Below the pieces are notes generated by a model that saw nothing but the letters and a program-made list of their open reading frames with translations, ran no database searches and had not been told where the DNA came from. This document shows, one piece after another, positions 1 through 64,000 of a DNA stretch of 64,000 nucleotides; positions within the stretch are counted from its first letter, which is position 1; every line of letters begins with the position of its first letter. The DNA comes from Phage NC-B, in the sequence record MK310183. One strand, given 5' to 3'. The position numbers were made by a program, and so were the translations under genes.

Positions 1-35
1 AGCCTTTCATCCCTTCTCAACATGAGTAAGAGAAA

Positions 36-160: not shown

Positions 161-310
161 CTGATTGATTTCCTAAAGGCAATTGCATTGGTAATAACCC
201 TTTTTTAAATGAGGACTCCCCCCCTTTTAGGAAACGCGCTCGGAGAGGCTAGGTCCATCCGGTCAAATTGAAATTTTAAACTGTTATATATAAGCATAAG
301 GAATAACTTA

Positions 311-5995: not shown

Positions 5996-6232
5996 ATGAA
6001 TACAAGACAGCAATTCAATAAAGAGCACGCCGCCGCTTTGGCGGCTCTCAATCACAACGGCATTCTTGACGCAGCATTAGAGGCATTAAAAGAAACCCTC
6101 ATGAGAGATATCGTATTAACCGAGGCTCATGAGAATAAGAAACGCGAAGAGTGTTATCAAAAGTATAAAATGGTTGGTAGCTTAAAAGAGGTCATAAAAG
6201 CTGCTATCAATAATGCAGGAGATATTTCCTAA
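5996..6232 (+). CDS. hypothetical protein
   Basis: 78 aa ORF between portal and scaffold; stop overlaps next start. Confidence 0.45.
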   Translation: MNTRQQFNKEHAAALAALNHNGILDAALEALKETLMRDIVLTEAHENKKREECYQKYKMVGSLKEVIKAAINNAGDIS

Positions 6233-7314: not shown

Positions 7315-7354
7315 TCGACAAATTTATTTTTAATAGTATAGGAGCTAATATAAC

Positions 7355-8413: not shown

Positions 8414-9192
8414 CAGTAGATTCCGTAACTGTTAGTCCTTCGTCGGTTGCAAGCCTTCCGACGGGGGCTACTCAGCAGTTTACAGCTACAGCAGAAATGA
8501 GCGACGGCTCCACAAGCACAACCGGATTTAATTGGTCCGTTGAGGGCGGTGGGGCTGTTTCTGTTTCTGGGCTATATACTGCACCGAGTACGTCGCAAGA
8601 AACCCCAGCAACTATTACGGCTATTAAAGGTGGTAAGTCAGGTACTGCTACAGTTCTATCTGTTTTTGAACCTGCTACTATTGAAGCCAAAGCTAACATC
8701 TCGGGTAAAGTAGGTGGAAGCACCACAGCTTTTACTACAATGTTTACAGCAACTAACTCTTCAGCAGAAGATTATTCTTTTGTTGTATCTCCGACGTCAG
8801 CAGGAACCGTTAGTGCCGCAGGAGTTTTAACTTTAAGTAATGATGCAACTGGCACAGTTACTGTTAAAGCAACTCATAAAACTCAGTCAGGTGTTGAAGC
8901 TACTATAACCTTTACAGGTGTTGTTGCTAAAGCAGCTATTACTGGAAAAACCGTCACTGGTAAGGTTGGTGGTGATACTATTACGTTTGCTGAGTTATTT
9001 ACAGCAACTAACTCTTCAGCAGAAGATTACAACTTCGTATCAAGTCCTCCTGAAATGACTTCATCTATCGATGAGAGCACTGGTCTTGTTACCTTGGCTG
9101 CTGGCGCTACAGGTGATATCACAATTACTGCTACTCACAAAACACAAACGTCTGTGACAGCAACTGCTACGATTACGGTGGTATCAGAGTAA
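7355..9192 (+). CDS. major capsid protein long form (capsid fused to three Ig-like Big_2-type domains via -1 frameshift at 8392-8398)
   Basis: -1 frame ORF 8320..9192 has no independent SD; contains tandem repeats ...FTATNSSAEDY...TVKATHKTQ... Confidence 0.55.
8392..8398 (+). other. -1 programmed ribosomal frameshift slippery heptamer G_GGA_AAG
   Basis: X_XXY_YYZ heptamer 5 codons before the capsid stop; the -1 frame is open from here to 9192 and encodes Ig-like domains. Confidence 0.6.
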
Positions 9193-9295
9193 CTGTTATT
9201 CTACTAGCACTTATTATCAGTGCAGGTGTGAAAATTACATTTAGAAAGAGTTCTGGTGTTTTCTGTAATCACTGTTAAATCTAGTACATAAGAAT

Positions 9296-9326
9296 AAAGC
9301 CGCCTTCGGGCGGCTTTTCTCATTTT
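9296..9326 (+). terminator. rho-independent terminator
   Basis: GCCGCC-TTCG-GGCGGC then TTTTCTCATTTT. Confidence 0.8.
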
Positions 9327-9390
9327 AAGACCCTTATAAGGAGATATGTAATGTATTCTCTTTGTCTATACACAACTAGGAGGACAAGTT

Positions 9391-10137
9391 ATGGCAATGC
9401 CTGACGTTCAATATCCCATCAATACCTACGGATGGCTTAAGAAAGCTGTGTCCCTCTGGGCTGACAGGGATGATGATGAATTTGTTAATCAGATTCCAAA
9501 CTTTATTAATTTTGCAGAGAAAGAAATCTATCGTAACTTACGAATTCCTCCTCTGGAAAAAGAAGTATACTTAGATATTAAAGATGGTGTGGCTTTTATT
9601 CCACCAGACTATTTAGAAGCTCAGTGGATGATGAGAGCAAGTAATGGACATATGTTCCGAGTAACTTCTCCAGAAGAATTAGATTGGTTGAAAAGAAATA
9701 ACTCAGTAAACCCAACTAACTGGAATCAGGGAGAAGTAAATTTTACTAGGTTGGGAAGTCGGTTCCTGTTCTACCCAGCTATCAACGCTGATACTCCAGT
9801 CTATCCTGATGATGGAAGTCCAATTATTCCGGCAGAAAACTCTGTTATCCTAAGCTATTATGCTGACCCTCCGGAATTTCATGAGGATTCTGATACAAGT
9901 GCAATTTTAACAATAGCTCCAGAGCTTCTTTTGTACTTTACTCTGCGTCATGCAAGCTTGTTTGTCCAAGATGATAATGGGGTTCAGAAATGGTCTGCTT
10001 TAGGGAAAGCTATTCTAGATGAGGTAGTTGAACAGAGTAAGAAAGCTGAATACTCAGGCTCTCCTCTAGTTATTCCTAGAACTATTGACCGTCTTCACAG
10101 CTCTCGTGAGTTGTATGGAATCAAACACTACAGTTAA
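9391..10137 (+). CDS. virion structural protein (possible head-tail adaptor)
   Basis: 248 aa ORF with AGGAGGA SD, first gene after capsid terminator. Confidence 0.45.
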   Translation: MAMPDVQYPINTYGWLKKAVSLWADRDDDEFVNQIPNFINFAEKEIYRNLRIPPLEKEVYLDIKDGVAFIPPDYLEAQWMMRASNGHMFRVTSPEELDWLKRNNSVNPTNWNQGEVNFTRLGSRFLFYPAINADTPVYPDDGSPIIPAENSVILSYYADPPEFHEDSDTSAILTIAPELLLYFTLRHASLFVQDDNGVQKWSALGKAILDEVVEQSKKAEYSGSPLVIPRTIDRLHSSRELYGIKHYS

Positions 10138-10146
10138 GGAGAGATT

Positions 10147-12924
10147 ATGATCGTTTATAACAACCAAGCACCAGCTAATCCTAATAATGTTGGTCAGTTT
10201 GGTGCTACAGAAGGTTCTATTGGAGCCTATAAACAAGCAGCGGAATATGCTGCTGATTCTAAATATTGGGCACTTTTAGCAGAATCTAAATTTGGGACAA
10301 CTGATGACCTGATTGCACAGGTGGAGCGTTTATACCAACAAGGTGTTTTACTCCGAGAAGATATTGAAGATCTGAAGCAGGATTTTGCTGCTCAAGACAT
10401 TCGCTTAATGAATTTGATTGCTCAAACAAATGCTGCTGTTGCAGATGCCAATAACTCAGTTGCACTTATTGATCAAAAGATTGTAGAAGTCCAGAAGCAA
10501 TTGGATATTCTAATGGATATGAAGGTTACTGTCACTACTCTGCCTCCGGGTTCTCAAGCTACTGGCTCTTTTGATAACCAAACTGGTGAGATTAAGCTGG
10601 GAATTCCTGAGGGTGAAAAAGGTGCAGATGGCTCTGTAACAGATCTGTCAACTGTATCTTCTGGGACTCCAGAGCTTGGGGATTTAGGTTTTTATGTAGA
10701 CAAAGATGACAATACTGTACACAAAACCACTCTAGAAAACATTGCTAACCTGATTCCTTCTGTTCGCTCTATCTCTGTCAATGGTGGAGAGGCTCAGGAT
10801 GGTGACGTTGCTTTGGATATTAATAAAACCACAGTGGGTTTAGGTAATGTTCTTAACGTGGCTCAATATAGTCGTCAAGAGATTAATGACAAGTTTGACA
10901 AACCTGTTAAGATTTATCAATCTAAAGCAGAAGCCGATGCAAATGCTCAATATCGTCAAGCCGGAGAATCTGTTTTAGTTTGGGAAGATACTCAGTATGT
11001 ATTCTACACTGTTGCTGCTAATAAAACCTTAACTCCAGTTAAATCTGAAAGTCGTATATTGACAGTAAACTCAAGATCTCCCGACTCTACAGGTAATATT
11101 GATATTACAATACCTACAGGGAACCCTTCTCTGTATTTAGGTGAAATGGTGATGTTTCCTTATGACCCTAATAAAACTGTATCGTATCCCGGTGTGTTGC
11201 CTGCTGATGGTAGATTAGTTTCTAAAGAAAACGCCTCTGATTTAGGTCCATCTCTTGTTAGTGGACAGCTTCCTGTGGTCTCTGAAACAGAATGGCAGGC
11301 CGGTGCTAGACAATACTTCTCTTGGGGTAAATTGGCAGATGGGGTTACTGATGCAGATTCTACTAACTTTATAAGTATCCGACTTCCTGACTGGACTGGT
11401 GGTGAGGCTATCAGGTCTCCTGATTCAGATAAAGATGCTAATTACAAAGGTCGTGTTCAATCTCAGATTCCTTACATTGTAACCGTAAACGGAAAAGCCC
11501 CTGATGATGCTAATGGTAATGTAGTCCTCACAGCTGCTAATGTTGGTGCAGCGGCATCTGGGGCAAATTCAGATATTACCTCTCTTAGTGGACTGACTAC
11601 TCCTCTCTCTGTTGCTCAGGGTGGTACGGGTGTCACCGATATTGGCTCGCTTCGTAGAGCGGCGTTGGTTCAGGGGGTTCTGTGTAATGATCAGGCCGGA
11701 CCTCAATCTTATAACAGTTATAGATCTCCTAACGGGGAATATGCTTTCAAAGTGGATAACTCGGGACTTGTTGCTTCTATTAATGCAGGGACGGAAAATG
11801 TCGTACCTTTTGCTATAGAATCGGGTGGTACAGGAGCCACTTCTGCTTATGATGCCCGTATTTCTTTGGGTTTAGGGAGATTCAGGGAAGAGGGTGTAGA
11901 AACTAAAATCTTCTCCCCAGATTTCGGAACGTATGTATATGTCAACGATACCTCTTGGGGTTGCTATAATACAGAAAGAGGGACTGTACCTTTAGGTATT
12001 GTTCAAGGAGGTACGGGAGCGATAACTGAGGCCGCTGCTCGCGTCAACCTGAAAGTTGATAAACTTATCCAGAGTTCAACTGACACTAAGCTCTTAGATG
12101 GTTCTGGAGAACATACCTTCTTTATTACAGATGCAGATTGGGGGTATTTCAATAACTCTGATTCTTCTCGAGTAGCATTACCGATTATAAGTGGTGGTAC
12201 AGGAGGGAAGACTCCAGCCGAGGGTTCTGAAAAACTAGGAGCTATGCACTGTCAGTATGGTCAATCGACTTTTTATGGTAGCGAAGATTTGCCAACAGGT
12301 ATTGGCTTCTACAATCAAGATGTTTCCCCGTTCCCCGGGGGTAGTGGAGCACCCTACTCCTATGCAGAGATTATGACCATCTCTGAAGGAGGTCGTGGTG
12401 GGAATTGGTCTCAGATTGGTTTCTCTACCATCACCAACCAAGCTCCTCGGTATCGTCAAAGAACTAATGACCCAGCTTTAATTACAAACTGGAGAGATTT
12501 CTTAATCCGAGATTTAAACACAACAGTAGATGTTAATGGTTTTGTCAAAATAGCGTCGCCTATTGTGAAAGTTAAGTCTGACGGCTCTTTTGAAGTTAAC
12601 GATGCAGCGGTTGGTGCGACAGTAGAGAAGCTGGGGGTTGGTATTTATAAGGTTTCTGGTGTCTTAGGTTTTAACTCTGACCCTTCTTGGGGAGGGACTT
12701 CTGGTGGATTCTCAGTTCCTTACAACTCTAACGGATTGGCTCTGCTCTGGGTCGACTATGAGATTGAAGAAACTGGTGATATTATCCTGAAAACCTACCA
12801 TCGTGTCCATGCTGATGCTCCTGTTTTTGCTAGAAATGAAATAGATGGATTAGCGGATGGGGATCCTGTAGATATTCCAGAAGGTCGGTGGATTGATCTT
12901 CGTGTCGAAATGCCATCCAAGTAA
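10147..12924 (+). CDS. tail fibre protein
   Basis: 925 aa; four copies of the tail-fibre repeat GGTG...(A/S)..AR..L(G/K) e.g. SVAQGGTGVTD, IESGGTGATSAYDARISLGL, IVQGGTGAITEAAARVNLKV, IISGGTGGKTPAEGSEKLGA. Confidence 0.7.
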   Translation: MIVYNNQAPANPNNVGQFGATEGSIGAYKQAAEYAADSKYWALLAESKFGTTDDLIAQVERLYQQGVLLREDIEDLKQDFAAQDIRLMNLIAQTNAAVADANNSVALIDQKIVEVQKQLDILMDMKVTVTTLPPGSQATGSFDNQTGEIKLGIPEGEKGADGSVTDLSTVSSGTPELGDLGFYVDKDDNTVHKTTLENIANLIPSVRSISVNGGEAQDGDVALDINKTTVGLGNVLNVAQYSRQEINDKFDKPVKIYQSKAEADANAQYRQAGESVLVWEDTQYVFYTVAANKTLTPVKSESRILTVNSRSPDSTGNIDITIPTGNPSLYLGEMVMFPYDPNKTVSYPGVLPADGRLVSKENASDLGPSLVSGQLPVVSETEWQAGARQYFSWGKLADGVTDADSTNFISIRLPDWTGGEAIRSPDSDKDANYKGRVQSQIPYIVTVNGKAPDDANGNVVLTAANVGAAASGANSDITSLSGLTTPLSVAQGGTGVTDIGSLRRAALVQGVLCNDQAGPQSYNSYRSPNGEYAFKVDNSGLVASINAGTENVVPFAIESGGTGATSAYDARISLGLGRFREEGVETKIFSPDFGTYVYVNDTSWGCYNTERGTVPLGIVQGGTGAITEAAARVNLKVDKLIQSSTDTKLLDGSGEHTFFITDADWGYFNNSDSSRVALPIISGGTGGKTPAEGSEKLGAMHCQYGQSTFYGSEDLPTGIGFYNQDVSPFPGGSGAPYSYAEIMTISEGGRGGNWSQIGFSTITNQAPRYRQRTNDPALITNWRDFLIRDLNTTVDVNGFVKIASPIVKVKSDGSFEVNDAAVGATVEKLGVGIYKVSGVLGFNSDPSWGGTSGGFSVPYNSNGLALLWVDYEIEETGDIILKTYHRVHADAPVFARNEIDGLADGDPVDIPEGRWIDLRVEMPSK

Positions 12925-12932
12925 ATTTAAGA

Positions 12933-12954
12933 ATGCCCTCTTCGGAGGGCTTTA
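12933..12954 (+). terminator. terminator-like hairpin
   Basis: GCCCTC-TTCG-GAGGGC then TTTA. Confidence 0.5.
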
Positions 12955-12967
12955 TGGAGGATTATAA

Positions 12968-15199
12968 ATGTCTAGAGAGTTAATGCCCAAATCTGGGATA
13001 ATGATGCCTCACGTGGTAGTTACTAGAGATGCCGCAGTAGTGGGTGTATCTACTGTAGATGGGGCCGCTGGTGCTATCAACTTAACAGAAAAATACCTTC
13101 AGAAGTCTGACGCTGAAGCAACCTATCAAACGAAAGCAGAAGGGGCTACTAAGCAATATGTAACCGACGCTATCAACCCCATTATGACAAATGCTCTTTT
13201 TAAAGATGACCCCTTTGTTAATAATGACACACCTATTCGCTCTGGCGGTGGTAATGGTGTTGAATCGGTAGATATGATTAAAGTCACCCCTGAGAACACC
13301 ATCAAACTAGGGAGCTATGCTTCTTCTGTTCAGGGGGTTGAGATTCATTCTGCTGGTCGTCTTCAGGTTGTTGATCAGAACGATTCTGGAGTCGAAACTA
13401 AATATCCGGTATACTCCAAAAGATATCGCCCAGAAGTTGAGGATTTACCTTTCGCTTCAATTGGCTCCTATGTTAAAGACTCCAAAGGACGCACTATTGG
13501 TGTAACTCGTACTGGTATCAACTCTGATATCAAACAGCTCACACAGAAAGTTACTTTCACTCAACCAGTAACTGTCCCTGATGCAGTTGGTGATTATGAT
13601 GCGGTTACTTTGAGACAGCTTCGAAACAGTGGTGGCGGTTCTGGTGGTCCTACCATGAGCGGTATCTCTAACTTCGGAATTGGCGACTTTCATTTACGTG
13701 ACAGCCGTGCTTTCATCCCAGCTTTTGAGGTAGTGTCTGATGGGCAGCTTTTGAATCGTGCTGACTACCCAGATTTATGGGCTTATGCACAACTGCTATC
13801 TCCAATCGAAGACTCTCTTTGGTTGAGCGATTGGTCGCAGCGAGGTAGATATTCCAAAGGAGACGGAACAACAACTTTCCGTGTTCCCGATAGGAACGGG
13901 GTTCAGAGTGGTTCTATTAAGTCTTTATTTGCTAGAGGTGACGGTGGCAACTCAGCTAACAACGGAGAGGTTAGACAATCTTCCATTCCTAATATTACTG
14001 GTAAGATTGGTTTTCATGGAAGTGGTGGTGATAACTCGGGTACAGTTTTGGCGAATGGTAGCGGTGCTTTTTCAGTGTCTCAGACAATACCTAGATATTT
14101 AAGCGGTGCAACAATAGTAGCCGCTGGGGCTAGTTCATACGGAGAAGCTAACCTTAATGCGTCTACTGTTAACCCTGTTTATGGTAGGTATCCTGAACTG
14201 GCTGATGAAGTCTTACCTCGCAATTTTACAGGTGTCTGGACTATTCGAGCACACGGTGGATTTACTGCTGCTAACACTTCTTGGTCTGTTATTAACAGTG
14301 ATGCTACAGTGACACCTGACGTGTATGCGAAAGGTGGTTTAATATCATCTGAATATAAAGTATCAGGGGTTGTTAGAGGGTCTGCTACTTTCCAATCGTC
14401 ATACAGGTTAATGAATGATGGAAAGTCTGAAGCATTTGGTGATATCGATGTTAAGACTTCCGAAGGTGGTCTTGGTCATTACTCTTTTAATGAAAAAGGA
14501 AGGCTACAGATAACTAACAGTGGTCCTGATGCTGCTGGTACTTCAGTTTCACTGAAGGGGGTTAATCGAGGCTGGAATGACATACAATTAGACCCCGGAT
14601 ACTCAAGAGAGACCACAGGAGGTGGGATTAACGTTATTAGTGATAATCAGGTTCGAGATAAAATCACAACTGGTATTAACATCTTCTCCTCAATAGACAC
14701 CGGATATCCTACCAAGACTGGTTTTGGGGCATACTCTCCTGGTTCAGATGATTTCGCCAAAGGTTTAATTTATGTCAGTGGGGATGGTGGATTTTTCTCT
14801 CGTTACTTCTTCGACCACTTTGGACAGATTAATGGTACAAATAGAGATGGTCAATTTAGTTATACGAAAAATGGACCATCAGACGAAAGAATAAAACGTG
14901 AGATTAGAGATATTTCCCCAGAGAAAGCCATTAGTGTTATTAAGGGTTTAAATTTCAAATCTTTTATATACACTAATGATGAACAAGAAAGAGTTCGCCG
15001 TGGGGTTATTGCCCAACAGGCAGAGAAAGTGGAACCTCTTTATGTTAAAACTCGAAAATACCCAGGAATGAAGGAAGGTGATCCAGAGATCGAGCAGAAA
15101 GAGCTAGACACTACTCCAATGCTTTTAGATACCATGCAGGTTGTTCAAGATCTGCTGAAGCGTATTGAAGTTCTAGAAGCGAAGTTAGCAGAGAAGTGA
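12968..15199 (+). CDS. tail fibre/tailspike with C-terminal intramolecular chaperone (peptidase S74-like) domain
   Basis: C-terminus PSDERIKREIRDISPEKAISVIKGL...RGVIAQQAEKVEPLY then coiled coil, matching auto-cleaving chaperone domains of phage fibres. Confidence 0.75.
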   Translation: MSRELMPKSGIMMPHVVVTRDAAVVGVSTVDGAAGAINLTEKYLQKSDAEATYQTKAEGATKQYVTDAINPIMTNALFKDDPFVNNDTPIRSGGGNGVESVDMIKVTPENTIKLGSYASSVQGVEIHSAGRLQVVDQNDSGVETKYPVYSKRYRPEVEDLPFASIGSYVKDSKGRTIGVTRTGINSDIKQLTQKVTFTQPVTVPDAVGDYDAVTLRQLRNSGGGSGGPTMSGISNFGIGDFHLRDSRAFIPAFEVVSDGQLLNRADYPDLWAYAQLLSPIEDSLWLSDWSQRGRYSKGDGTTTFRVPDRNGVQSGSIKSLFARGDGGNSANNGEVRQSSIPNITGKIGFHGSGGDNSGTVLANGSGAFSVSQTIPRYLSGATIVAAGASSYGEANLNASTVNPVYGRYPELADEVLPRNFTGVWTIRAHGGFTAANTSWSVINSDATVTPDVYAKGGLISSEYKVSGVVRGSATFQSSYRLMNDGKSEAFGDIDVKTSEGGLGHYSFNEKGRLQITNSGPDAAGTSVSLKGVNRGWNDIQLDPGYSRETTGGGINVISDNQVRDKITTGINIFSSIDTGYPTKTGFGAYSPGSDDFAKGLIYVSGDGGFFSRYFFDHFGQINGTNRDGQFSYTKNGPSDERIKREIRDISPEKAISVIKGLNFKSFIYTNDEQERVRRGVIAQQAEKVEPLYVKTRKYPGMKEGDPEIEQKELDTTPMLLDTMQVVQDLLKRIEVLEAKLAEK

Positions 15200-55038: not shown

Positions 55039-57072
55039 TTAGTGTTTACCTTTACAGTAATCTGAATTACAGATCACCCTGTTTTCTTTGTTCAGTGAGC
55101 AAGTTTCTGCATCACGCCACGGAATTTGTTTATAACAGACTGCACAAAACCCAATTGAAGTCCAGAGGGCTTTTGTAAACTCAGCTGTTCGTTGTCCATC
55201 GTAACTGACAACTGTTTTTCGGAGAGAGGTTGACTTTTCTGGAAATGTCTCCGCTTTCTCAGCGGGTACCTCCTTTGGGGCATTCTTTGGACCATAAACA
55301 GAGATGGCATAGGTATCACCACCACGTTTTTCCAAATACGAATTAGGAACATCTGCAAGTGTGATATCCCCTGAACGTTTTGCTGAGCTAACCATTACAA
55401 TCATACGGCTAAGCATACGTTCATCAACACGAACAGCTACTTCAGGACGACGTGGGTTGGTTGTGTCCACTGCTTTAGTCCAAATATAACCCTCAGACAG
55501 CGTAACATTCTTTACTTTGTCTTTGATTTCTTTGGAGCAGATATAACAAACGTCTTCACCACGAAGTTTACTCATTTCGTTGTCAAACTCGAAATCAGTC
55601 TTGACTTCACCACAGATAGCACATACACCCAAAGGCACATCTTCTTCCTCTTCAGAGGTTTTAGATAACGCTTCGAAGCATTCTGGATGCCAGTATGCCT
55701 GATAAGCAAACACAGCCTTACGAGCATCTTTCCAGTCAATGTGCTTATCACAACCACCACAGTCACCATGAGAGTGAGACTCCCAGAACTTACGAGTGAC
55801 TTCTACACCATTCTTAGTGATGAAGGAGTCCTCTGCATCAAAAGGGATATCATCATCAAAATCAGCAGTAGTGCTTTGAGGCTCCTTATCTGTAGCATCA
55901 ACAAACAGCCCTGAAGTTAGTACGAGGCGAATCATACTGTCCACTTCGGAGATACAAGCAATCGTCCCGCGATATACTACCTTTGGGTTTTCAAGAGCCT
56001 TAAGATATTCATCTTTGGCTACGTTGTGAACATCCCCTTCGACATACTCTTGGGCTTTATCATCGTAGATGTAACCAACCATCTTACCACGATCTGTGTT
56101 GTTATAAGCATGGAACTCGTGAGGAATAATATCCACACGACCATCACGACGATAAGGAAGACCACGATCGGCAGCCAGTTTGTTCTGGTCTTCAATCGCT
56201 TTACGACGACGAATGTCTCCGCTTGTCACGCCGGGCTTGTCGTCTTTGTTTCCGTAAATGTCGCTTGTGCTGCTGCTTGATTTGTTTGTCTGTTGGTTCT
56301 GATATAGAGAGGAGTTCGAGTAATAGCCGCCCCAGCGACTCGTTATCGTAAAAACCGGAAGCTTGTGCTCCACCTCTTGAACCAGAGTCATACGACTGTT
56401 AGACACATCAAAGATATACTCAGTTCCCACTTTACACTCGAAGTGGTCATTGATACGGTTCTTATGGGACTTAGAACGCTCTAAAATCCACATAAGCATA
56501 GCTTCTTCAGAAGCCCCAAACCAATCTAAACCACAACGGGCTAGGTGGAAAGGACGCTCATCATTACGGATAATGTGAAGCGTGTTGTCTTTAGCATCAT
56601 GCCAAATCAAAGTGAATGCACCATCCAGTTTTTGGATAGTCTCTGCTGCTCCAATGGTGTTAATTGAGTGGCAGATGTTTTCACTATCAACTTCGAAACG
56701 TTTACTGTCAGGAAGGAGATCTTGATCTAACAGGGTTCCATTATGAACCAGAGTGATATCACCGTGAGTAAATGGGTGAGCGTTTCGAGCATTGACAGCC
56801 CCACGAGTGGCATGTCGGCTATGACCAACAATCCACGAAGGAGGAACTACGTAGTTCGTAAGTCCTTTGGTAATATTCTTATATTCTGTCTGGAGCATAA
56901 AAGCGTAAGAAGGAAGAGCTTCTTTGTAAGAGAAGACTTGCTTTTCACCTTTACGCTGACCAAACACACCAGTTGAGTGCTGTCCACGGAAAACACCAGC
57001 ATACAGAAGTTGGTTGAAAATATCCAAATCTGTTGAGGTCATGTTGCCGCCAGCTAATACGATACCACAAAT
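55039..57072 (-). CDS. class-II glutamine amidotransferase (Ntn-hydrolase) domain protein with Cys-rich C-terminal extension; predicted non-AUG (ATT) start
   Basis: GVFRGQHSTGVF, GHSRHATRGAVNARNAHPF, LVHNGTL match the GlmS/PurF-type GATase domain; in-frame codons just upstream of the ATG read K-I-C-G-I-V-L-A-G-G-N, i.e. the conserved (M)CGIV N-terminus, bounded by a stop two codons further up. Confidence 0.75.
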   Translation of the reverse strand: MCGIVLAGGNMTSTDLDIFNQLLYAGVFRGQHSTGVFGQRKGEKQVFSYKEALPSYAFMLQTEYKNITKGLTNYVVPPSWIVGHSRHATRGAVNARNAHPFTHGDITLVHNGTLLDQDLLPDSKRFEVDSENICHSINTIGAAETIQKLDGAFTLIWHDAKDNTLHIIRNDERPFHLARCGLDWFGASEEAMLMWILERSKSHKNRINDHFECKVGTEYIFDVSNSRMTLVQEVEHKLPVFTITSRWGGYYSNSSLYQNQQTNKSSSSTSDIYGNKDDKPGVTSGDIRRRKAIEDQNKLAADRGLPYRRDGRVDIIPHEFHAYNNTDRGKMVGYIYDDKAQEYVEGDVHNVAKDEYLKALENPKVVYRGTIACISEVDSMIRLVLTSGLFVDATDKEPQSTTADFDDDIPFDAEDSFITKNGVEVTRKFWESHSHGDCGGCDKHIDWKDARKAVFAYQAYWHPECFEALSKTSEEEEDVPLGVCAICGEVKTDFEFDNEMSKLRGEDVCYICSKEIKDKVKNVTLSEGYIWTKAVDTTNPRRPEVAVRVDERMLSRMIVMVSSAKRSGDITLADVPNSYLEKRGGDTYAISVYGPKNAPKEVPAEKAETFPEKSTSLRKTVVSYDGQRTAEFTKALWTSIGFCAVCYKQIPWRDAETCSLNKENRVICNSDYCKGKH

Positions 57073-57149
57073 TTTCTAATCCACCTGAAGGGTAAACCCT
57101 TTCATCTAATTAACCTTTAAATGCGCCCTTTATCAGAGCGCCCATTGTG

Positions 57150-58250
57150 TTACAGCAGTCGTTCTAACTGCATTTCCAGATGATCTGGAATATAACCAGT
57201 GACATTATCATCACTACTGCCTGATTCACGCATCAATGCAAACATGTGACGAATCTCACCAACCGTTGCGGTTCGTGTATTCTCAATCTGGTTAGAGTAA
57301 TGAGATAAGATTTCTTCATAGACACGGTTAGCATTACCACGAACATATCCCAAGAAACCATAGAAGTCATTCATGTCACGAAGATTAATCAAGATTTCTC
57401 CATCAGAACCTGTCTGATGTACACGAACTCGACCGACCAAAGTTACAGATCGCTCACGACAGAACAGAATATCTCGAGCAAGACGATACCCTTCAGTGAG
57501 ATCACTATCTCTTGGGGTGTAGTCTAGAGGTAGATGTTGAATCATAGGAGCGAAGCGCAGCTCATTCAACTTCTCAACATAAGCTTCATTGTCTAAATCT
57601 GCATATTCAACAGCCAGTTTCTTGAGAACCAAGAAACGATTGACCAGATTTAGCAGCTGACTCTTTTTCCACTTCGGCTCTGAGATACGGAACTCAACAG
57701 AACCAAACTGAGAGAGAGGTAACAGATTAAGGGAGGTGTACTTGTCCCAGCTATTAACAAGAGTACGGAAGAAATCTTCCCCATCTCGGTTGAACGCTGA
57801 TGAAGCATTCATAACTTGAGCTTGAACAACAGCAAAAGCTGGGCAGAAGTTACTACGGTAACGATGATATCCAGAACATTTGAACATCATCTTTTCATAG
57901 AACGTCCACCCAAGAATAACTTTCTTAAGGATATTACTATCAGCGTCCCGCATATCCATATGAACGTGAGTGGAGCAGCGCCAAGTTCCCTCGGCTCCAG
58001 AATCCTGTACCGCTTCACTCAGATTGTTAATAGCACGAAGTAATTCTTCACCGTTGTAAGGTCGTGAACAAACTAACTCACAACCATCACGAAGAGAGCC
58101 GTCTTCAGTACAAACCCACATATCGACGTCAATGTCAGTCGTACCTTCAACCTCTAACTCAATACCAACACCACACTGAAAGGCAATACTTGGATGCGGT
58201 TCAGATAAGCGAGGGTTACGGTATCCAAAAACTTGTGCTACGGTTGTCAT
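57150..58250 (-). CDS. amidoligase-like protein (glutamine-synthetase-like fold)
   Basis: GVGIELEVEG and STHVHMD motifs; sits next to the GATase and near a GGCT gene, the neighbourhood I recall being described for this family. Confidence 0.6.
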   Translation of the reverse strand: MTTVAQVFGYRNPRLSEPHPSIAFQCGVGIELEVEGTTDIDVDMWVCTEDGSLRDGCELVCSRPYNGEELLRAINNLSEAVQDSGAEGTWRCSTHVHMDMRDADSNILKKVILGWTFYEKMMFKCSGYHRYRSNFCPAFAVVQAQVMNASSAFNRDGEDFFRTLVNSWDKYTSLNLLPLSQFGSVEFRISEPKWKKSQLLNLVNRFLVLKKLAVEYADLDNEAYVEKLNELRFAPMIQHLPLDYTPRDSDLTEGYRLARDILFCRERSVTLVGRVRVHQTGSDGEILINLRDMNDFYGFLGYVRGNANRVYEEILSHYSNQIENTRTATVGEIRHMFALMRESGSSDDNVTGYIPDHLEMQLERLL

Positions 58251-58873
58251 AATGATTCCACCAACTCTACATTATATGATGACAGGTCTGAAGAAATATG
58301 CTTGAACTTCTCCAGAAGGTTTAAAGATTGACGACCATTGTCGCCATAACCAGCTTCAAGAAGCACGTTTCCAACGTAAGCCCCTTTGTAATAAACTTTT
58401 CCATCGACAGGATTGATATAGATGAAACGAGTAACCAACCCTTCAAACTCTGGATTAAACAGGTTGTACACCAAATCACCCGGAATCGAACGTCCGAGAG
58501 AAGGTGGAGCACCACGAAGTTTATTCCCCATCAAGCCTTTAGCTCGCTGACGAACAGGGTTAATATGGGTCCAGCTCACCATGTTATTACCATGCTGAAG
58601 GTATCCTACATCTGGAGACTCCAGAATGAGGTTGTGATCAAACACTGGGATATTACTAACAATCTGACGTTCAAACTGACCTTCAGAGTTTTTAGTCCAG
58701 CGTTCCGCCTCAAACACTAAAGACATTTCAGCGTCGTGTGAGTAGTCGTCGATATCAAAGTTACCTTGCTGACGAACATCAAGCACATATAGAGGGAGGT
58801 TTTTACCATCAGGTGATCGCTGAGCAATCCATGTTCCACAATAATAGTGTTGAAAATCTCTTAACAGGCTCAC
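58247..58873 (-). CDS. hypothetical protein
   Basis: 208 aa ORF, ATGA overlap. Confidence 0.5.
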   Translation of the reverse strand: MSLLRDFQHYYCGTWIAQRSPDGKNLPLYVLDVRQQGNFDIDDYSHDAEMSLVFEAERWTKNSEGQFERQIVSNIPVFDHNLILESPDVGYLQHGNNMVSWTHINPVRQRAKGLMGNKLRGAPPSLGRSIPGDLVYNLFNPEFEGLVTRFIYINPVDGKVYYKGAYVGNVLLEAGYGDNGRQSLNLLEKFKHISSDLSSYNVELVESL

Positions 58874-58882
58874 AATATCACC

Positions 58883-59689
58883 TTATACAATCTGGAGTTT
58901 AGAGGAGAATTTATCCGCTTCTTTAACATCGTTACTGTTGATGATGTTGTGAAGCTTTTCAATTGGAAGGCGAGAGTGAAGTGACATCAATACTTCTATA
59001 TCACAACCCTGAACAACCTTATCCACTTGCTCATAAACAAACTTGCGAGTGGACTTATCACCAATCCAGAAGTTAGAAAGAGAACGATATTCAATACCGT
59101 AATCTTTGTAGCGAATGGCAGAAGCCTTTCCGTACAACTCTTTACGACGAGTGTCTTTATCCATGATCACAGCTGGCAAGGACAGGAAGTAATCACACAA
59201 CACACCCAACATCATTTGAGTTTGTCGAGTAATCTCTAAAGTCCCGGAGACACCAAGGTGCACATGACCCCCAGCAGTACGCAAACCTTTATCAGTTGCG
59301 ACCGGTGAAGGGTTCTTTTGTCCAGTGAAGGCATTGAAATCAGGAGTACAACCAAATACAAAGGCTGACGGATGGAAAGATTCAAGCTCTTCTGAAGTGA
59401 ACACATGAGAGCTAATCCCAAGTGCTGCCTCCATGCCACGTTCATTGAGAACTTTGTTAGTCAGATCAATACCGCGCTGAATGTTATCATCAAACGCTTC
59501 AAACCCTTTCTGTGGGTTAATATCAAACTCGGCCAGAACGTTGTCTTCTTGAAGACGAACATCAGGAGCCAGATCAATTTTATTATCTTTAGAACAGCCC
59601 AGCTTACCAGCCACAGAGGTGATAATACCGGAAGCAGTACGAACAAACATTTCAGGGTCAGAGCCAATAAGGAAAGCGCGCTTAGTCAT
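58883..59689 (-). CDS. hypothetical protein (possible second ligase-fold protein)
   Basis: AFLIGSDPEMFV and GGHVHLGV resemble the acidic-strand plus HVH pattern of 57150..58250; start set to ATG 59689. Confidence 0.45.
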   Translation of the reverse strand: MTKRAFLIGSDPEMFVRTASGIITSVAGKLGCSKDNKIDLAPDVRLQEDNVLAEFDINPQKGFEAFDDNIQRGIDLTNKVLNERGMEAALGISSHVFTSEELESFHPSAFVFGCTPDFNAFTGQKNPSPVATDKGLRTAGGHVHLGVSGTLEITRQTQMMLGVLCDYFLSLPAVIMDKDTRRKELYGKASAIRYKDYGIEYRSLSNFWIGDKSTRKFVYEQVDKVVQGCDIEVLMSLHSRLPIEKLHNIINSNDVKEADKFSSKLQIV

Positions 59690-60632
59690 TGTAATACTCC
59701 ACGAGTTCATCAAAAAGGGAAACAACACGAGCACCAGCTTCTTCTGGTGTCATTGAGGAAGGTACTGCTTGCATCAGACGTTCGATAAAACTTCGAACAG
59801 TAATTCTGTCCATACGCTGATCTAATACTTCTCGCTTGTGACCTGCACAAGTTGACCAGAGACGTAACCACTCACTCATACTCTCATAATGGTCAGGGTC
59901 TTGGTCACGACGACGTGCCATACGACGGAGAACTCCATCATTATGGTTTCGTACATAACCATCTCGGTTGTCATCAACACCGAATACATTCTGAACCCAT
60001 ACGTTTTCAGAAAATTCATCAGTGGTGCAAATTAATGGCAGAAATGCAATTGCACTCATGTCGCCATCAAAATAAGTCGCTGCTGACTCATCGGTTGAGT
60101 CTACGTCATTACTATAACACCAGCGACCAAAGAAGTTACGACTTAAACCAGCTAAGCGTAGAGCTAAACCGATTCGTTGTCGCTTAAGCAACTCTTCCTT
60201 GTCTTGTACGCCTTCCTGAAGGAACTCCATTCCATTAAAATCACCATCCAAATAGCTACGGATGGTCATTAGTCCAGTAAACACCTTGTCTGCTGGATGG
60301 TTTCGAAGGTTCACGGCAATGGAGTTCACCGAAGTGACAGAGAACATATCTTTATAGCAAGACATTGAGTTAAAAATATCTGTTGCTTCAACTAAAGCTC
60401 TTTCGATATCTTTAGCTGGCACGCCATAAAAATTGTGAGGCCAGAAGTTAATAACTTCAATTTCTGAAGTTCTATCACGAAGGCTTGTTCGGTTACGACT
60501 TTCACCGTTAATGTCTGTAACAGAATACATGTGCATGCAGTTAAAAGTACCAAAGCAAGCTCTTCCTTTGAACACTGACTCACCGAAATCCTCTGCCGGT
60601 GTTACCGGAGCAATCGATGCGGAGATTGACAT
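59682..60632 (-). CDS. hypothetical protein
   Basis: 316 aa ORF. Confidence 0.5.
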   Translation of the reverse strand: MSISASIAPVTPAEDFGESVFKGRACFGTFNCMHMYSVTDINGESRNRTSLRDRTSEIEVINFWPHNFYGVPAKDIERALVEATDIFNSMSCYKDMFSVTSVNSIAVNLRNHPADKVFTGLMTIRSYLDGDFNGMEFLQEGVQDKEELLKRQRIGLALRLAGLSRNFFGRWCYSNDVDSTDESAATYFDGDMSAIAFLPLICTTDEFSENVWVQNVFGVDDNRDGYVRNHNDGVLRRMARRRDQDPDHYESMSEWLRLWSTCAGHKREVLDQRMDRITVRSFIERLMQAVPSSMTPEEAGARVVSLFDELVEYYND

Positions 60633-60640
60633 ATTCGCCT

Positions 60641-61858
60641 CTATTTATTAAAGAATAGTTTTTCCATAATGGTTTCCCACTCTTCTGAGGGGAGGGTTGA
60701 GAACCCGTTTCCGTGAAGCCTGTTTGTCATGCAACTAATAATATTGTACATGTTGTAGCTTCGGGTGGATTCTGTTCCATTGTTCCAGTTATAACCGAAA
60801 ACAATTTTATCGAAGGAGGTTTTATCCGTAGTTACTTCTCGGATAAACTCAACCAAGAGCGATTTCTCTGTGATGACCGCACGTTCACCATCTGGCAGAT
60901 TGCAATACTGAGGAAGAAGGATTGGTAAGAACATCGAATTGTTCACTCGACAATCACGAACACCTTCACTGCGATAGATTAGGCTTGAGAAGTCTTCATC
61001 ACGCAGGTGTCCTTCACCTTCAGTGTATTCACACTGTCGCCACTTGGTCTGGCGAGGCTCAATCATTGTACTACCAACGCCTACTGTATACAGAGACGCT
61101 TGGAAAATACATGAATCGTAATCATTCCCCGTTAAAGCAACTTGCTCGTTGCCGAACACATCCACTGAAGAGTTAATCAGTCGGCTGAATGCAAGAGAGG
61201 CTAAAGGGGACCAGCCTTTCTTATACATCTTGTTCAGCATTTCATACACAGCAGATTTTTCATCATCTGTATAGAATGTACGATTCAGCATCAGATAGAA
61301 CAGAGCGCGATCAGCAGGACAACCATCAGTACAAACACCCATGAATCCTACTTCATGCCATACCAGACATGAGTCAGAATCTTTATCCATGAATGCTTCA
61401 AAGGCTTCCATTACAGCCCTGTCAGTAACATCAGGACGGTTGTTTTCTTCTGCCCATGTTTCTACATGAGAAGGAGGACGAGGGTCTCCATTCTCCACCC
61501 CTTCGCGGAAATATTGAGTGGTAATAGGCTTTTTATCACCATAACGTTTTACACCATAAGCGGGAAGGTGTGTACCAGAGTTCCAGATGTACTTAATTTC
61601 GGACATAGGCATCATGTTTTCGAGAACGTTCTCTTCAGCAGTGCCTTGACGAACCATCATATTTTCACTCCACACCTTAATGCGGATATTCCAGCCGTAG
61701 TTGCTGTCGTATGTGCAGTAGTAGTCAGGATCACCGTCTTCATCTTCACCATAATCACCACCCTGATAGTAACCCGCTTTCAGGAAACCATAACAAGGAG
61801 GCCAAACAGTTACAACGTCTTCTGATTCTTTCCAGCTTTGAAGTGTTACAGGGAACAT
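60641..61858 (-). CDS. hypothetical protein
   Basis: ORF 60641..61957 trimmed to ATG 61858 (AGAGG SD, no overlap with upstream gene). Confidence 0.5.
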   Translation of the reverse strand: MFPVTLQSWKESEDVVTVWPPCYGFLKAGYYQGGDYGEDEDGDPDYYCTYDSNYGWNIRIKVWSENMMVRQGTAEENVLENMMPMSEIKYIWNSGTHLPAYGVKRYGDKKPITTQYFREGVENGDPRPPSHVETWAEENNRPDVTDRAVMEAFEAFMDKDSDSCLVWHEVGFMGVCTDGCPADRALFYLMLNRTFYTDDEKSAVYEMLNKMYKKGWSPLASLAFSRLINSSVDVFGNEQVALTGNDYDSCIFQASLYTVGVGSTMIEPRQTKWRQCEYTEGEGHLRDEDFSSLIYRSEGVRDCRVNNSMFLPILLPQYCNLPDGERAVITEKSLLVEFIREVTTDKTSFDKIVFGYNWNNGTESTRSYNMYNIISCMTNRLHGNGFSTLPSEEWETIMEKLFFNK

Positions 61859-61868
61859 TTTTACCTCT

Positions 61869-62231
61869 TTACTCTGATACCAGAAGGCCCAGAGATTTGC
61901 GAATGTAGTCAATACTACGGAAGTTTCGATAGTTCTCTTGGAAGCGCATCTTTTCAAACTCTGCTTCCTGAAGCTCTACCTCTGCTGCTTTATATCCCGA
62001 TAAAGCTAAACTCACCACATCCTGAGGCAAGACATTACGACGACGAATAAGATATTTATTCGCTTTTAATTTACCTTGTGCACGAGCCATTTTGGCCTTT
62101 GCCGCCTTGATTCCATGAGAAATCCAAAGCAGTTGCTGCTTCAGGTCTTCCTCGTCCATACCACCTAAATCGTTTGCTACTTTATGCAGCGTAGACAGGT
62201 TTACATGGCCTTTAATGGGGCGTAGGTTCAT
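61869..62231 (-). CDS. hypothetical protein
   Basis: 120 aa basic helical ORF. Confidence 0.5.
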   Translation of the reverse strand: MNLRPIKGHVNLSTLHKVANDLGGMDEEDLKQQLLWISHGIKAAKAKMARAQGKLKANKYLIRRRNVLPQDVVSLALSGYKAAEVELQEAEFEKMRFQENYRNFRSIDYIRKSLGLLVSE

Positions 62232-62395
62232 AACTTCTCCTGTTTGTCACATTGATTGGTTAGCCAGTTGTAAGACCCTCTGTTATTCTTGCTTAACTCA
62301 CAAGATACAAAGGAAGTCACACGGGCAAACCCCACAGTGGCTAAGCAAATAAAGATTGCTGCCAATAAGAATTTAGCTTTCAACTTATTATCCAT
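62228..62395 (-). CDS. hypothetical small secreted/membrane protein (55 aa), not in ORF track
   Basis: MDNKLKAKFLLAAIFICLATVGFA signal-like N-terminus; AGAGG SD; stop TGA overlaps next ATG (ATGA). Confidence 0.35.
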   Translation of the reverse strand: MDNKLKAKFLLAAIFICLATVGFARVTSFVSCELSKNNRGSYNWLTNQCDKQEKL

Positions 62396-62636
62396 ACAAC
62401 CTCTTCTTTGAACTTAAAAAAGGACTCTCCTAAGAGAGCCAAGCTTTAAGGCCAATTAAATAGATATCACCCAATATCTGTGGATAACCTGCTCTTAAAA
62501 TATTCTATCCGACGGATGTTCGAGGATTACTCCTCTCCCTAGCATCGGCCCCATACGGGTAAGATTAAATTAAGTTTAGGTTAGTTGAGCCAGAATAGCT
62601 CACATAGCCCTCTGATACTCACAAGGGCTATAGATG

Positions 62637-62888
62637 TTACTCTGTGGCTCCGTCGAATCGGAGGATTGCTGTTGGAACAGGAATCACCACCATGTCAATC
62701 TCTAAACGGAAGAGATGACCTGTACTTAGCTGAACTGCTGTTACAGGTTTAGCGATACCCCCAACAGAAGCTGAGGGGATTCGAATAAAGAACTCCCCCG
62801 GATATTCAGTTGCACGGAATACATCTCCCGGTGTCATGTCCTTTACTTGGACAACCAATTCAGGAGGTTGTTTATTAGCAATTTGCAT
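62637..62888 (-). CDS. hypothetical protein
   Basis: 83 aa ORF after a 240-bp non-coding region. Confidence 0.45.
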   Translation of the reverse strand: MQIANKQPPELVVQVKDMTPGDVFRATEYPGEFFIRIPSASVGGIAKPVTAVQLSTGHLFRLEIDMVVIPVPTAILRFDGATE

Positions 62889-63121
62889 TACAGACCTTTC
62901 TTAGCACGATCTTTGGCAGTTTTGCCGGTGCGAATACGGTGGGAAACATTAACCAATTCGCCGCCTTCGACGATGGTTACGCTTTTGTTTTTCGCAATAT
63001 CGAATACAGTCTTCTCTGTACCGCCCAGACGAATCTGTTTAGGTTCGCTGTGGGTCTGAGTTGATTTAGACCGGAACTGGAACGGCTGACGGATGGCATC
63101 AATTGCGCTAACTTTAGACAT
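62888..63121 (-). CDS. hypothetical protein
   Basis: 77 aa ORF. Confidence 0.45.
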   Translation of the reverse strand: MSKVSAIDAIRQPFQFRSKSTQTHSEPKQIRLGGTEKTVFDIAKNKSVTIVEGGELVNVSHRIRTGKTAKDRAKKGL

Positions 63122-63148
63122 GTTTTATTACCTTACATTAAAGAGAGA

Positions 63149-63562
63149 TTAAACAACAAATTGGAACGCTTTGTATCCAAACTTGTAAGAGAAGTCGTGC
63201 TTGAATTTCACTACACGACCACGATCACGGAAAGATTTCAGACGGCTAATAAAGCCAGCCATCGGCTCAGGGTCAATAGGGCTACGAATCTTCATAGCTA
63301 CAGAGTGCAGCTTGAAGCGTTTACCAGTGCTACAGGCCATCATCACATACTCCATACGAGTAGTCCAGATGTTGAGCACCATGCTTGTTTTCTCCGCTGA
63401 CCAACCAGTCTTGCGGGCGATTTCCTTGTGGACATTAAGCTCCAAAGGAAGAGGGAATTGCTTGTTGAATGAAGCCGGATATAGCTTGACCAGAAGGTCA
63501 ATGTTTTCTTTATACGTTAAATAAGCCAATTTCTTGCTTACGTTGGGGAATTTCCCAGCCAT
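63149..63562 (-). CDS. ProQ/FinO-domain-like RNA-binding protein (putative)
   Basis: LVKLYPASFNKQFPLPLELNVHKEI and VLNIWTTRMEYV...GKRFKLHS align with the ProQ N-terminal domain pattern; start set to ATG 63562. Confidence 0.5.
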   Translation of the reverse strand: MAGKFPNVSKKLAYLTYKENIDLLVKLYPASFNKQFPLPLELNVHKEIARKTGWSAEKTSMVLNIWTTRMEYVMMACSTGKRFKLHSVAMKIRSPIDPEPMAGFISRLKSFRDRGRVVKFKHDFSYKFGYKAFQFVV

Positions 63563-63761
63563 TTTTTGAAGCTCCAAAACAGCGCCGAAAAGAGAGGCGT
63601 CATAGTAGCTAAAGGGAGGAGAGAAGAGGGCTTATTTACTTGCCTTTTTCTGTCCGTTAATGTACCAGATAACTGAGCCATCAGGCTGTCGCTGACCAAA
63701 GCCTTTCAGGTTAACCATTTCTTCTTCAGAGTAGGCACGTTTTCTCACTGAGTTTCTCCTG

Positions 63762-63992
63762 TCAATAGAAGGTGTGTGTAGAGTCATCGTTCATACATAA
63801 CCAAACGAAGAAGACAATCACACAGAAAGCAATAACACCGAGAATTGCAAGGATTATAGTGTTAGCTAATGTGATATCTAACACGCTTTGCAGATACATA
63901 AAGAACTGTACGACACCACATATCATTAGCACGACACCAACAACAATGAGGAGCCAATATGTGCAGAGAAGGGCTGCATCCAATAGTGACAC
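63762..63992 (-). CDS. small hydrophobic membrane protein (two predicted TM segments)
   Basis: 76 aa, LLCTYWLLIVVGVVLMICGVV and IILAILGVIAFCVIVFFVWL. Confidence 0.5.
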   Translation of the reverse strand: MSLLDAALLCTYWLLIVVGVVLMICGVVQFFMYLQSVLDITLANTIILAILGVIAFCVIVFFVWLCMNDDSTHTFY

Positions 63993-64000
63993 ATATTTTG

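Follow-up and report, generated by a model that had tools for sequence, protein, structure and literature searches.

Of the three major protein classes that associate with bacterial sRNAs, one consists of FinO-domain proteins. The Escherichia coli member ProQ is 232 aa long and carries a linker and a Tudor-like C-terminal domain in addition to its N-terminal FinO domain, and, to our knowledge, mechanistic studies of the domain have so far dealt with chromosomal or plasmid members only.

Members of the family are known to bind intrinsic terminators (PMC9674577, PMC12001967, PMC9977716). The RNA contacts have been described for RocC, in which Tyr87 and Arg97 hold the 3'-terminal nucleotide by its phosphate and the R97M substitution brings affinity down more than 200-fold; Gly52 of the same protein is "nearly completely conserved", and Arg75 is about 80% conserved, with R75D losing more than 100-fold in affinity (PMC9674577). 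The meningococcal protein NMB1681 binds dozens of sRNAs (PMC9674577), and ProQ is described as guarding 3' ends against poly(A) polymerase (PMC12086684). Phage-encoded FinO proteins were acknowledged in a 2023 review (PMC9977716). Our search of the literature found no experimental study of a phage FinO/ProQ protein, none that concerned phiEco32 and ProQ together, and no RNA-binding experiment on the protein described here or on any lytic-phage homologue of it.

The gene and its place in the early arm

The window, by which we mean the whole stretch of 64,000 nucleotides that was analysed, covers the greater part of the genome of a podophage related to phiEco32 (Gordonclarkvirinae). Its top DNA matches are Bas87, TH43, PAS59, ECBP2, and SU7, at 92-95% identity, and SU7 is classified in Suseptimavirus. 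Large rightward ORFs occupy 1-31 kb of the window and leftward ORFs occupy 32-64 kb. In phages of the phiEco32-like group the late genes run rightward; the leftward genes comprise a middle block followed, at the far right end, by an early block in which almost no gene has a known function (PMC8948821, PMC9965538). A sequence-only reading of this DNA had placed a ProQ/FinO-like gene in a block of small early-type genes near the right edge of the window. Both the position and the setting stand: the ORF is found at 63149-63562 on the minus strand (Table 1), among small leftward ORFs at the right window edge and in the arm that the literature classes as early. Synteny with phiEco32 and YF01 likewise puts the gene in the early arm, and we infer the timing of its expression from this position.

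Table 1. Features of the FinO-like locus, by position in the window or, for RNA-contact residues, by residue of the protein
Feature	Position	Strand	Details
FinO-domain protein CDS	63149..63562	minus	137 aa, stop included; ATG 63562-63560, TAA 63151-63149; from ORF list, same CDS in SU7
Shine-Dalgarno GGAG	63575-63572	minus	9 nt 5' of the ATG; SU7 has an annotated RBS at the matching position
FinO domain proper	63233..63535	minus	Residues about 10-110
Extra C-terminal helix	63179..63223	minus	Residues 114-128, beyond the canonical FinO domain; AlphaFold2
Single-gene cassette (gene + RBS)	63122..63582	minus	461 nt; local blastn/tblastn against the phiEco32 locus, phiEco32 annotation
Intrinsic terminator GGCUCUC-UUAG-GAGAGUC + U6	62413..62440	minus	Terminator scan; also annotated in SU7; 3' half invariant in 14 phages
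RocC Tyr87 equivalent (3'-terminal phosphate recognition)	Tyr72		Invariant in 39 homologues; ProQ Tyr70
RocC Arg97 equivalent (3'-terminal phosphate recognition)	Arg82		Invariant in 39 homologues; ProQ Arg80
RocC Thr82 equivalent (highly conserved)	Thr67		Kept
RocC Ser70 equivalent (helix N-cap)	Ser55		Kept
RocC Lys73 equivalent (N-cap region)	Lys58		Kept
RocC Lys119 equivalent (last helix)	Arg107		Basic character kept
RocC Gly52 equivalent (Gly of the beta-turn before helix 4)	Asn43		Replaced; Gly in most subfamily members
RocC Lys71 equivalent (N-cap region)	Ala56		Replaced
RocC Arg75 equivalent (N-cap Arg; ProQ Arg58)	Ser60		Replaced; most phage subfamily members have a non-basic residue here

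The SU7 record annotates the corresponding 414-nt CDS together with an RBS. A longer version of the ORF beginning at a TTG (63577) would overlap the GGAG site and is not used in the SU7 record. The encoded protein is very basic, with a pI of 10.1 and a net charge of +14.8 (about +15). Comparison of four orthologues yielded dN/dS values of 0.04-0.12 (8-20 synonymous versus 3-5 non-synonymous changes, dS up to 0.28), and the ORF is therefore a genuine functional gene under strong purifying selection. It is the only FinO-like ORF of the window, as a search of the six-frame ORFs with the family HMM recovered no second FinO-like paralogue. A scan for the phiEco32 middle/late promoter motif, TAATGTATA, produced one match with one mismatch inside the gene (63511-63519), which we did not retain; the window holds 25 matches versus 18±4 expected by chance.

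The gene is an accessory single-gene insertion, present in about 21 Suseptimavirus-like phages and missing from phiEco32. Where the window has the 461-nt cassette, phiEco32 has a spacer of 59 nt, and the genes on either side are the homologues of phi32_93 and phi32_94. Proteins with at least 90% identity were found in only 21 Escherichia phage records, and another 70 or so records of the Kuravirus type show matches in the flanks only. Among the BASEL phages, Bas86 and Bas87 carry near-identical orthologues, and the corresponding region is present in Bas88. On the 3' side of the gene, the same strand contains ORFs of 77 and 83 aa, a 240-nt non-coding stretch, and then the intrinsic terminator at 62440-62413, where transcription of the unit that includes the FinO-like gene most likely stops.

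The non-coding stretch (62396-62636, minus strand) holds an undescribed structured RNA element. The DNA of the stretch is conserved in Kuravirus (84%) and, at about 70%, in Salmonella phages of the 7-11 type, which are distant relatives and also have no annotation for it, and pattern scans recovered the element from 6 IMG/VR contigs and 11 metagenome contigs. The consensus structure drawn from a 14-sequence alignment has 59 pairs, with standard pairing in 98.7% of the sequence-by-pair cells versus 37-51% when the partners are slid, and with compensatory double changes at 11 pairs versus 0-2 in the slid controls. Next to the inner helix is a non-canonical pair, A..G or C..A, whose covariation is perfect in 19 of 19 sequences and recurs in both clades. 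The element is laid out as a hairpin just past the stop codon that precedes it, then a multi-helix core (62587-62476), a spacer, and the intrinsic terminator, directly after which come the RBS and ATG (62395) of the next gene. Rfam assigned no family to it; STnc100 was the single match, with an E-value of 0.2 and 21 bits against a gathering score of 47, which is chance. With a covariance model of the core, one more copy, a divergent one, was detected in SU7, in a different intergenic gap of the early region beyond the right edge of the window (40.7 bits, E=2e-6), and this copy shows additional compensatory changes. The element may function as a leader or attenuator, in antitermination or processing, or as an sRNA derived from a 3'UTR. 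Phages that have the element may have or lack the FinO-like gene, so the two are not obligate partners.

Family membership, fold, and RNA-contact residues

The relationship of this protein to ProQ and FinO is invisible to single-sequence methods, and profiles and structure were needed to see it. Used alone, the protein scored 25.9 bits against Pfam PF04352 (E=9.9e-6, residues 18-87), just below the gathering score of 27. A phmmer search with the single protein against PDB sequences returned no match, BLASTP against the N-terminal domain of E. coli ProQ detected no similarity (E about 2), and NCBIfam gave chance L31 matches only. The protein belongs to phrog_18901, a PHROG without known function. 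A word-indexed homologue search with the single protein retrieved 1 cluster, and an exhaustive phmmer search retrieved 43 cluster representatives.

Proteins of 28-36% identity were found by tblastn in Salmonella 7-11-like, Erwinia phiEa21-4-like, and Aeromonas LAh phages, among others, several of which already carry a ProQ/FinO or RNA chaperone annotation. PF04352 was matched by all four of the phage homologues first aligned (best 5.4e-19) and is carried by 15 of the 15 database matches of the profile search. When a family profile built from 39 homologues was run against 177,635 PDB sequences, the best match was the ProQ N-terminal domain (E 1.9e-14), followed by RocC (7e-12), FinO (8e-10), Lpp1663 (6e-9), and NMB1681 (2e-6). 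No PDB sequence outside the FinO-domain proteins was significantly matched by this profile, the next match having an E-value of 0.46.

With AlphaFold2, a prediction made from the homologue alignment reached a pLDDT of 90.7 and a pTM of 0.85, and one made from the single sequence had a pLDDT of 44 and was unusable. A Foldseek comparison of the model with the PDB placed FinO-domain structures in all 26 of its best 26 matches, and the protein, as modelled, adopts the FinO fold. The model has helices at residues 10-27, 44-52, 56-66, and 70-79, a beta-hairpin at 81-83/93-95, and a helix at 98-110 that completes the canonical domain, within which lie Asn43, Ser55, Lys58, Ser60, Thr67, Arg69, Tyr72, Arg82, and Arg107. 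The extra C-terminal helix falls in a region predicted with a pLDDT of 96-97 (residues 101-130), and many members of the phage subfamily share a conserved C-terminal block of the F..F...FG.PAF type in the 39-homologue alignment. Pfam detected no further domain in the 137-aa protein, and the model consists of one domain and one extra helix.

These results bear on what had been read from the letters alone. The protein had been aligned by eye with the ProQ/FinO N-terminal domain on the basis of four motifs (LYPASF, FPLPLEL, WTTRMEYV, and GKRFKLHS), all of which are in the translation. The likeness is real when judged by profile and structure, but it does not extend to pairwise comparison, where BLASTP against the ProQ N-terminal domain came back empty. 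The two computational checks then proposed, a PF04352 profile search and a structure prediction, bear out the ProQ/FinO-like identity: the score of the lone protein lies at the edge of the Pfam cut-off, the 39-homologue profile matches FinO-domain proteins only, and the predicted fold is confidently that of FinO. The functions suggested in the same reading, a remodelling of sRNA or mRNA stability or a decoy role towards host ProQ, are speculative.

We mapped RNA-contact residues by HMM alignment to RocC, with numbering that agrees with the RocC-RocR structure paper (PMC9674577); the correspondences are listed in Table 1. The two residues that recognize the 3'-terminal phosphate are unchanged, and Thr67 likely corresponds to the Thr that packs on the terminal base, an assignment that is our own. 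Trp66 and Arg69, which map to RocC Phe81 and Arg84, are likewise invariant across the 39 homologues, and the invariant Arg69 thus has a counterpart in RocC that is absent in ProQ. The Asn at position 43 is common to the window protein and its close orthologues. Since Asn is frequently able to take up the Gly-type turn conformation, its presence is a deviation from the family and no exclusion from it. With Tyr72, Arg82, and Thr67 kept and the equivalents of RocC Arg75 and Lys71 replaced, the 3'-end pocket is intact and the surface that would contact the hairpin backbone is remodelled.

A separate observation concerns the neighbours of the homologues. In six lineages (Salmonella 7-11, Erwinia phiEa21-4, and the metagenomic contigs L006-8, L009, L010-11, and L012), the closest homologues of the FinO-like gene directly adjoin Prs-like and NAMPT-like genes. 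This pair is the Pfam signature by which NARP1, an anti-defence operon for NAD+ reconstitution that consists of Adps and Namat, was recognised, and the paper describing NARP1 presents an operon of two genes and mentions no FinO-domain neighbour (bioRxiv 10.1101/2024.02.11.579819). No NARP1 genes were detected in the 64-kb window by tblastn, and the FinO-like genes of contig L013 and of Aeromonas LAh_8 have no NARP1-type genes beside them.

Candidate ligands and rival explanations

Our preferred reading, to which we assign a probability of roughly 0.6, is that this minimal, very basic FinO-domain protein of a phage-specific subfamily binds terminator-type RNAs of the phage or the host. It would be made early in infection and would bind RNAs that end in intrinsic terminators, contacting terminator hairpins and their 3' tails. 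The likeliest ligands would be the phage's own early transcripts, because the early arm is unusually rich in terminator-like hairpins, with ligands of the host ProQ type also possible. Between 58000 and 64000 in the window there are 9 such hairpins versus 4.5±1.8 expected, and the SU7 early arm has 16 versus 6.2±2.8 expected. Bound 3' ends might be shielded from 3' exonucleases and polyadenylation, or pairing between RNAs might be helped, and the outcome would be an altered stability or pairing of the bound RNA. Against this reading stand the replacement of the Gly52 and Arg75 equivalents, which are normally conserved and functionally important, the change of the Lys71 equivalent to Ala56, the Pfam score short of the gathering threshold, and the lack of an NCBIfam match.

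Alternatively, the protein could serve host takeover as a competitor or decoy, displacing ProQ from sRNAs and mRNAs or soaking up its ligands and so bringing about an early collapse of host post-transcriptional control. The fold and 3'-end pocket that it shares with ProQ would suit such a role, as would its early-arm position and the fact that the hosts of the subfamily phages (Escherichia, Salmonella, Erwinia, Aeromonas, Hafnia, and Shewanella) are all gammaproteobacteria, a group of which chromosomal ProQ is typical (PMC9977716). We nevertheless find this role unlikely. There is no mimicry of the ProQ sequence by BLASTP, and the positions of ProQ Arg32, Lys54, Arg58, and Arg62 are taken by Leu38, Ala56, Ser60, and Asn64; with these basic residues of the RNA surface replaced, the RNA specificity is probably different from that of ProQ. 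Moreover, the sister genus Kuravirus infects the same host and does without the gene.

The protein might instead be the dedicated partner of one or more structured RNAs of the phage, in the manner of FinO-FinP, FopA-Inc, or RocC-RocR, and control their stability or the read-through from early to middle genes. The obvious candidate is the element of about 225 nt with its terminator that lies 0.5 kb downstream of the gene, within its transcription unit, a covariation-supported RNA on the strand of the gene (62413-62636). FinO proteins of mobile elements typically have partners on their own element (PMC9977716), and the FinO-like gene of phage 7-11 is also upstream of a copy of the RNA, in one leftward cluster. 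The distribution of the two argues the other way, since the element is present in Kuravirus phages that have no such protein and was not found beside the FinO-like genes of 11 other loci, so the pairing of protein and RNA is not obligate. Nor is there an evident cis-antisense RNA. The plus strand has terminator-like hairpins in the 5' part of the gene at 63486-63501 and 63542-63559, and a FinP-like antisense RNA was rejected for want of a promoter-like site upstream of either. The second hairpin is built from the first codons of the gene, its loop is changed by a Phe-to-Leu codon in the L028 variant, and we treat it as chance. A dedicated partnership is, on balance, quite unlikely. We are equally doubtful of a broader version, in which the phage FinO subfamily would be a specialised regulator that acts on early-arm structured RNAs here, through read-through or stability, or that is coupled to NARP1 across the subfamily; if true, it would be the first defined role of a FinO-domain protein in a virulent phage.

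It is also conceivable that the FinO scaffold was kept while terminator binding was lost or changed, the protein having taken on another nucleic acid or a protein partner, for instance one linked to NAD+ reconstitution. Such repurposing would accommodate the replaced Gly52 and Arg75 equivalents, the subfamily's invariant Arg69 together with the extra C-terminal helix, and the Prs-like and NAMPT-like genes that adjoin homologues in six lineages. However, the invariance of the 3'-nucleotide pocket would be difficult to account for if the ligand were not an RNA 3' end, the window phage maintains the gene under purifying selection although Prs and NAMPT homologues are missing from its 64 kb, and NARP1 as described is a two-gene operon that needs no third component (bioRxiv 10.1101/2024.02.11.579819), all of which makes repurposing very unlikely. 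Finally, we give almost no credence to a decaying or functionless passenger gene, which would fit an accessory gene missing from Kuravirus and labelled "hypothetical protein" in GenBank but is at odds with the low dN/dS at dS up to 0.28 and with an intact ORF, RBS, and confidently folded domain.

Returning to the preferred reading of a terminator-binding FinO-domain protein, its interest is that a virulent phage adds its own FinO-domain protein to a host that already has ProQ, which raises the question of whether phage transcripts are stabilised or the ProQ network is disturbed. The BASEL phages with near-identical orthologues grow on E. coli and offer a tractable system.

Relation to known FinO-domain proteins

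The closest relative in a database is the protein of Escherichia phage vB_EcoP_SU7 (UniProt A0A8F3C9D8, GenBank QWY14189.1), which is 98% identical over 137 residues, is encoded at the same locus, and has a predicted structure that matches ours with a TM of 0.89; there is no material difference between the two. UniProt automatically labels it a "ProQ/FinO domain-containing protein", and the novelty of our domain assignment is therefore modest. The 7-11 homologue bears the same UniProt label and is hypothetical in GenBank.

Among characterized proteins, the nearest in architecture are NMB1681, the ProQ of Neisseria meningitidis (PDB 3MW6), and Legionella Lpp1663 (PDB 6S10), at about 16-19% identity. 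Both of these are chromosomal, whereas the window protein is a phage gene product that adds a C-terminal helix and is without the N-cap Arg. RocC, solved with the RocR terminator bound (PDB 7RGU, 7RGT), has Gly52, Lys71, and Arg75 where the window protein has Asn43, Ala56, and Ser60, and it has a dedicated sRNA partner in RocR, whereas none is known for the window protein.

In mobile-element lifestyle, the nearest proteins are FinO of F-like plasmids (PDB 1DVO), FopA of pCol1B9, and PcnR of IncI2. With these, a cis-antisense RNA of the protein's own replicon controls conjugation or copy number; no such RNA was detected for the window protein, whose setting, unlike that of the plasmid proteins, is the early arm of a virulent phage.

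E. coli ProQ (N-terminal domain, PDB 5NB9) has a homologous FinO domain, as the profile match indicates, and its Tyr70 and Arg80 correspond to Tyr72 and Arg82, but its basic surface of Arg32, Lys54, Arg58, and Arg62 is not conserved in the window protein. The window protein belongs to the ProQ/FinO family but is no ProQ orthologue, because it has only 137 aa and is without the linker or the Tudor-like domain. As such, "ProQ-like" is best read here as "minimal FinO-domain protein".

A structured RNA element and its second copy in SU7

Downstream of the FinO-like gene lies a conserved structured RNA element that is common to the phiEco32-like and 7-11-like phages and for which no family was found in Rfam. 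Compensatory changes occur in 11 of the 59 consensus pairs of this element, and one non-canonical pair, A..G / C..A, covaries perfectly. Because its terminal intrinsic terminator abuts the ribosome-binding site (RBS) of the next gene, the element looks like a leader, an element for attenuation or antitermination, or an sRNA from a 3'UTR. Located 3' of it are an HNH endonuclease gene and genes for 316-aa and 406-aa proteins of unknown function (phrog_13102 and phrog_13063).

A second, divergent paralogous copy was found in phage SU7 (Escherichia phage vB_EcoP_SU7, L001) with the covariance model of the element (40.7 bits, E = 2e-6), and this copy provides additional compensatory changes; the equivalent position in NC-B falls to the right of the window's end. 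A third SU7 gap, at 8540-8804, carries the short motifs CAACTAACC and TATCCAC, which are similar to those of the element, and the covariance model gave no detection in this gap.

Features of the window and of related phages and proteins
Feature	Location	Strand	Remarks
Structured RNA element	window 62413-62636	minus	conserved, no annotation; between early operon and next gene
Core of the element	window 62476-62587	minus
Intrinsic terminator closing the element	window 62413-62440	minus	abuts RBS of next gene
Second, divergent paralogous copy of the element	L001 (SU7) 11308-11403	minus	early intergenic gap SU7_105 / SU7_104
Terminator-like hairpin, then T-run	window 63542-63559	plus	opposite FinO-like gene
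Second terminator-like hairpin, then T-run	window 63486-63501	plus	opposite FinO-like gene
83-aa ORF	window 62637-62888	minus	in place of phiEco32 phi32_91 and phi32_92
Large middle-arm ORFs	window about 55039-58250	minus	by position, match SU7 genes annotated as glutamine amidotransferase and amidoligase
Extra C-terminal domain	A2 columns about 200-290		P0012, P0015, P0019 (7-11 protein), P0025, P0028
BFVD match G0X575	Salmonella phage 7-11		125 aa; apparent FinO fold
BFVD match K4F7Y7	Cronobacter phage GAP52		144 aa; apparent FinO fold

Terminators and promoters in the early arm

Intrinsic-terminator-like hairpins are in excess both in window 58000-64000 (9 versus 4.5 ± 1.8 expected) and in SU7 6000-13998 (16 versus 6.2 ± 2.8), and sigma-70-like promoter matches are rarer than expected in the same two regions (3 versus 10.7 ± 2.8 and 5 versus 16 ± 3.6, respectively). 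Two such hairpins lie on the plus strand opposite the FinO-like gene, one of them overlapping its start codon. No promoter-like site was found upstream of either, so the coding sequence, together with the A-rich spacer, probably gives rise to them incidentally.

Gene neighbourhoods

The replacement of two phiEco32 genes, one of which (phi32_92) encodes a membrane protein, by an 83-aa ORF is a second cassette-type difference from phiEco32, adjoining the FinO-like insertion. Prs-like and NAMPT-like genes, the signature pair of NARP1-type NAD+ reconstitution, directly adjoin FinO-like homologues in six lineages (loci L002 (7-11), L003 (phiEa21-4), the metagenomic contigs L006-L012, and L021). This arrangement is absent in the window, in locus L013 and in Aeromonas phage LAh_8, the last of which has a NUDIX gene near its FinO-like gene. 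The FinO-NARP1 association goes unmentioned in the NARP1 preprint (bioRxiv 10.1101/2024.02.11.579819).

Variation within the FinO subfamily

In our alignment of 39 homologues (A2), the members of 227-250 aa form a subset with a conserved extra C-terminal domain, in which a ..GN-HPF/L.. motif is followed by a beta-rich stretch. The window protein lacks this domain, unlike these longer members, which include the 7-11 protein. Predicted structures further suggest that 7-11-like phages carry a second, unannotated protein that appears to have a FinO fold (Foldseek E about 1e-6, TM 0.66-0.72, for the two BFVD matches), whereas the window encodes a single FinO-like protein.
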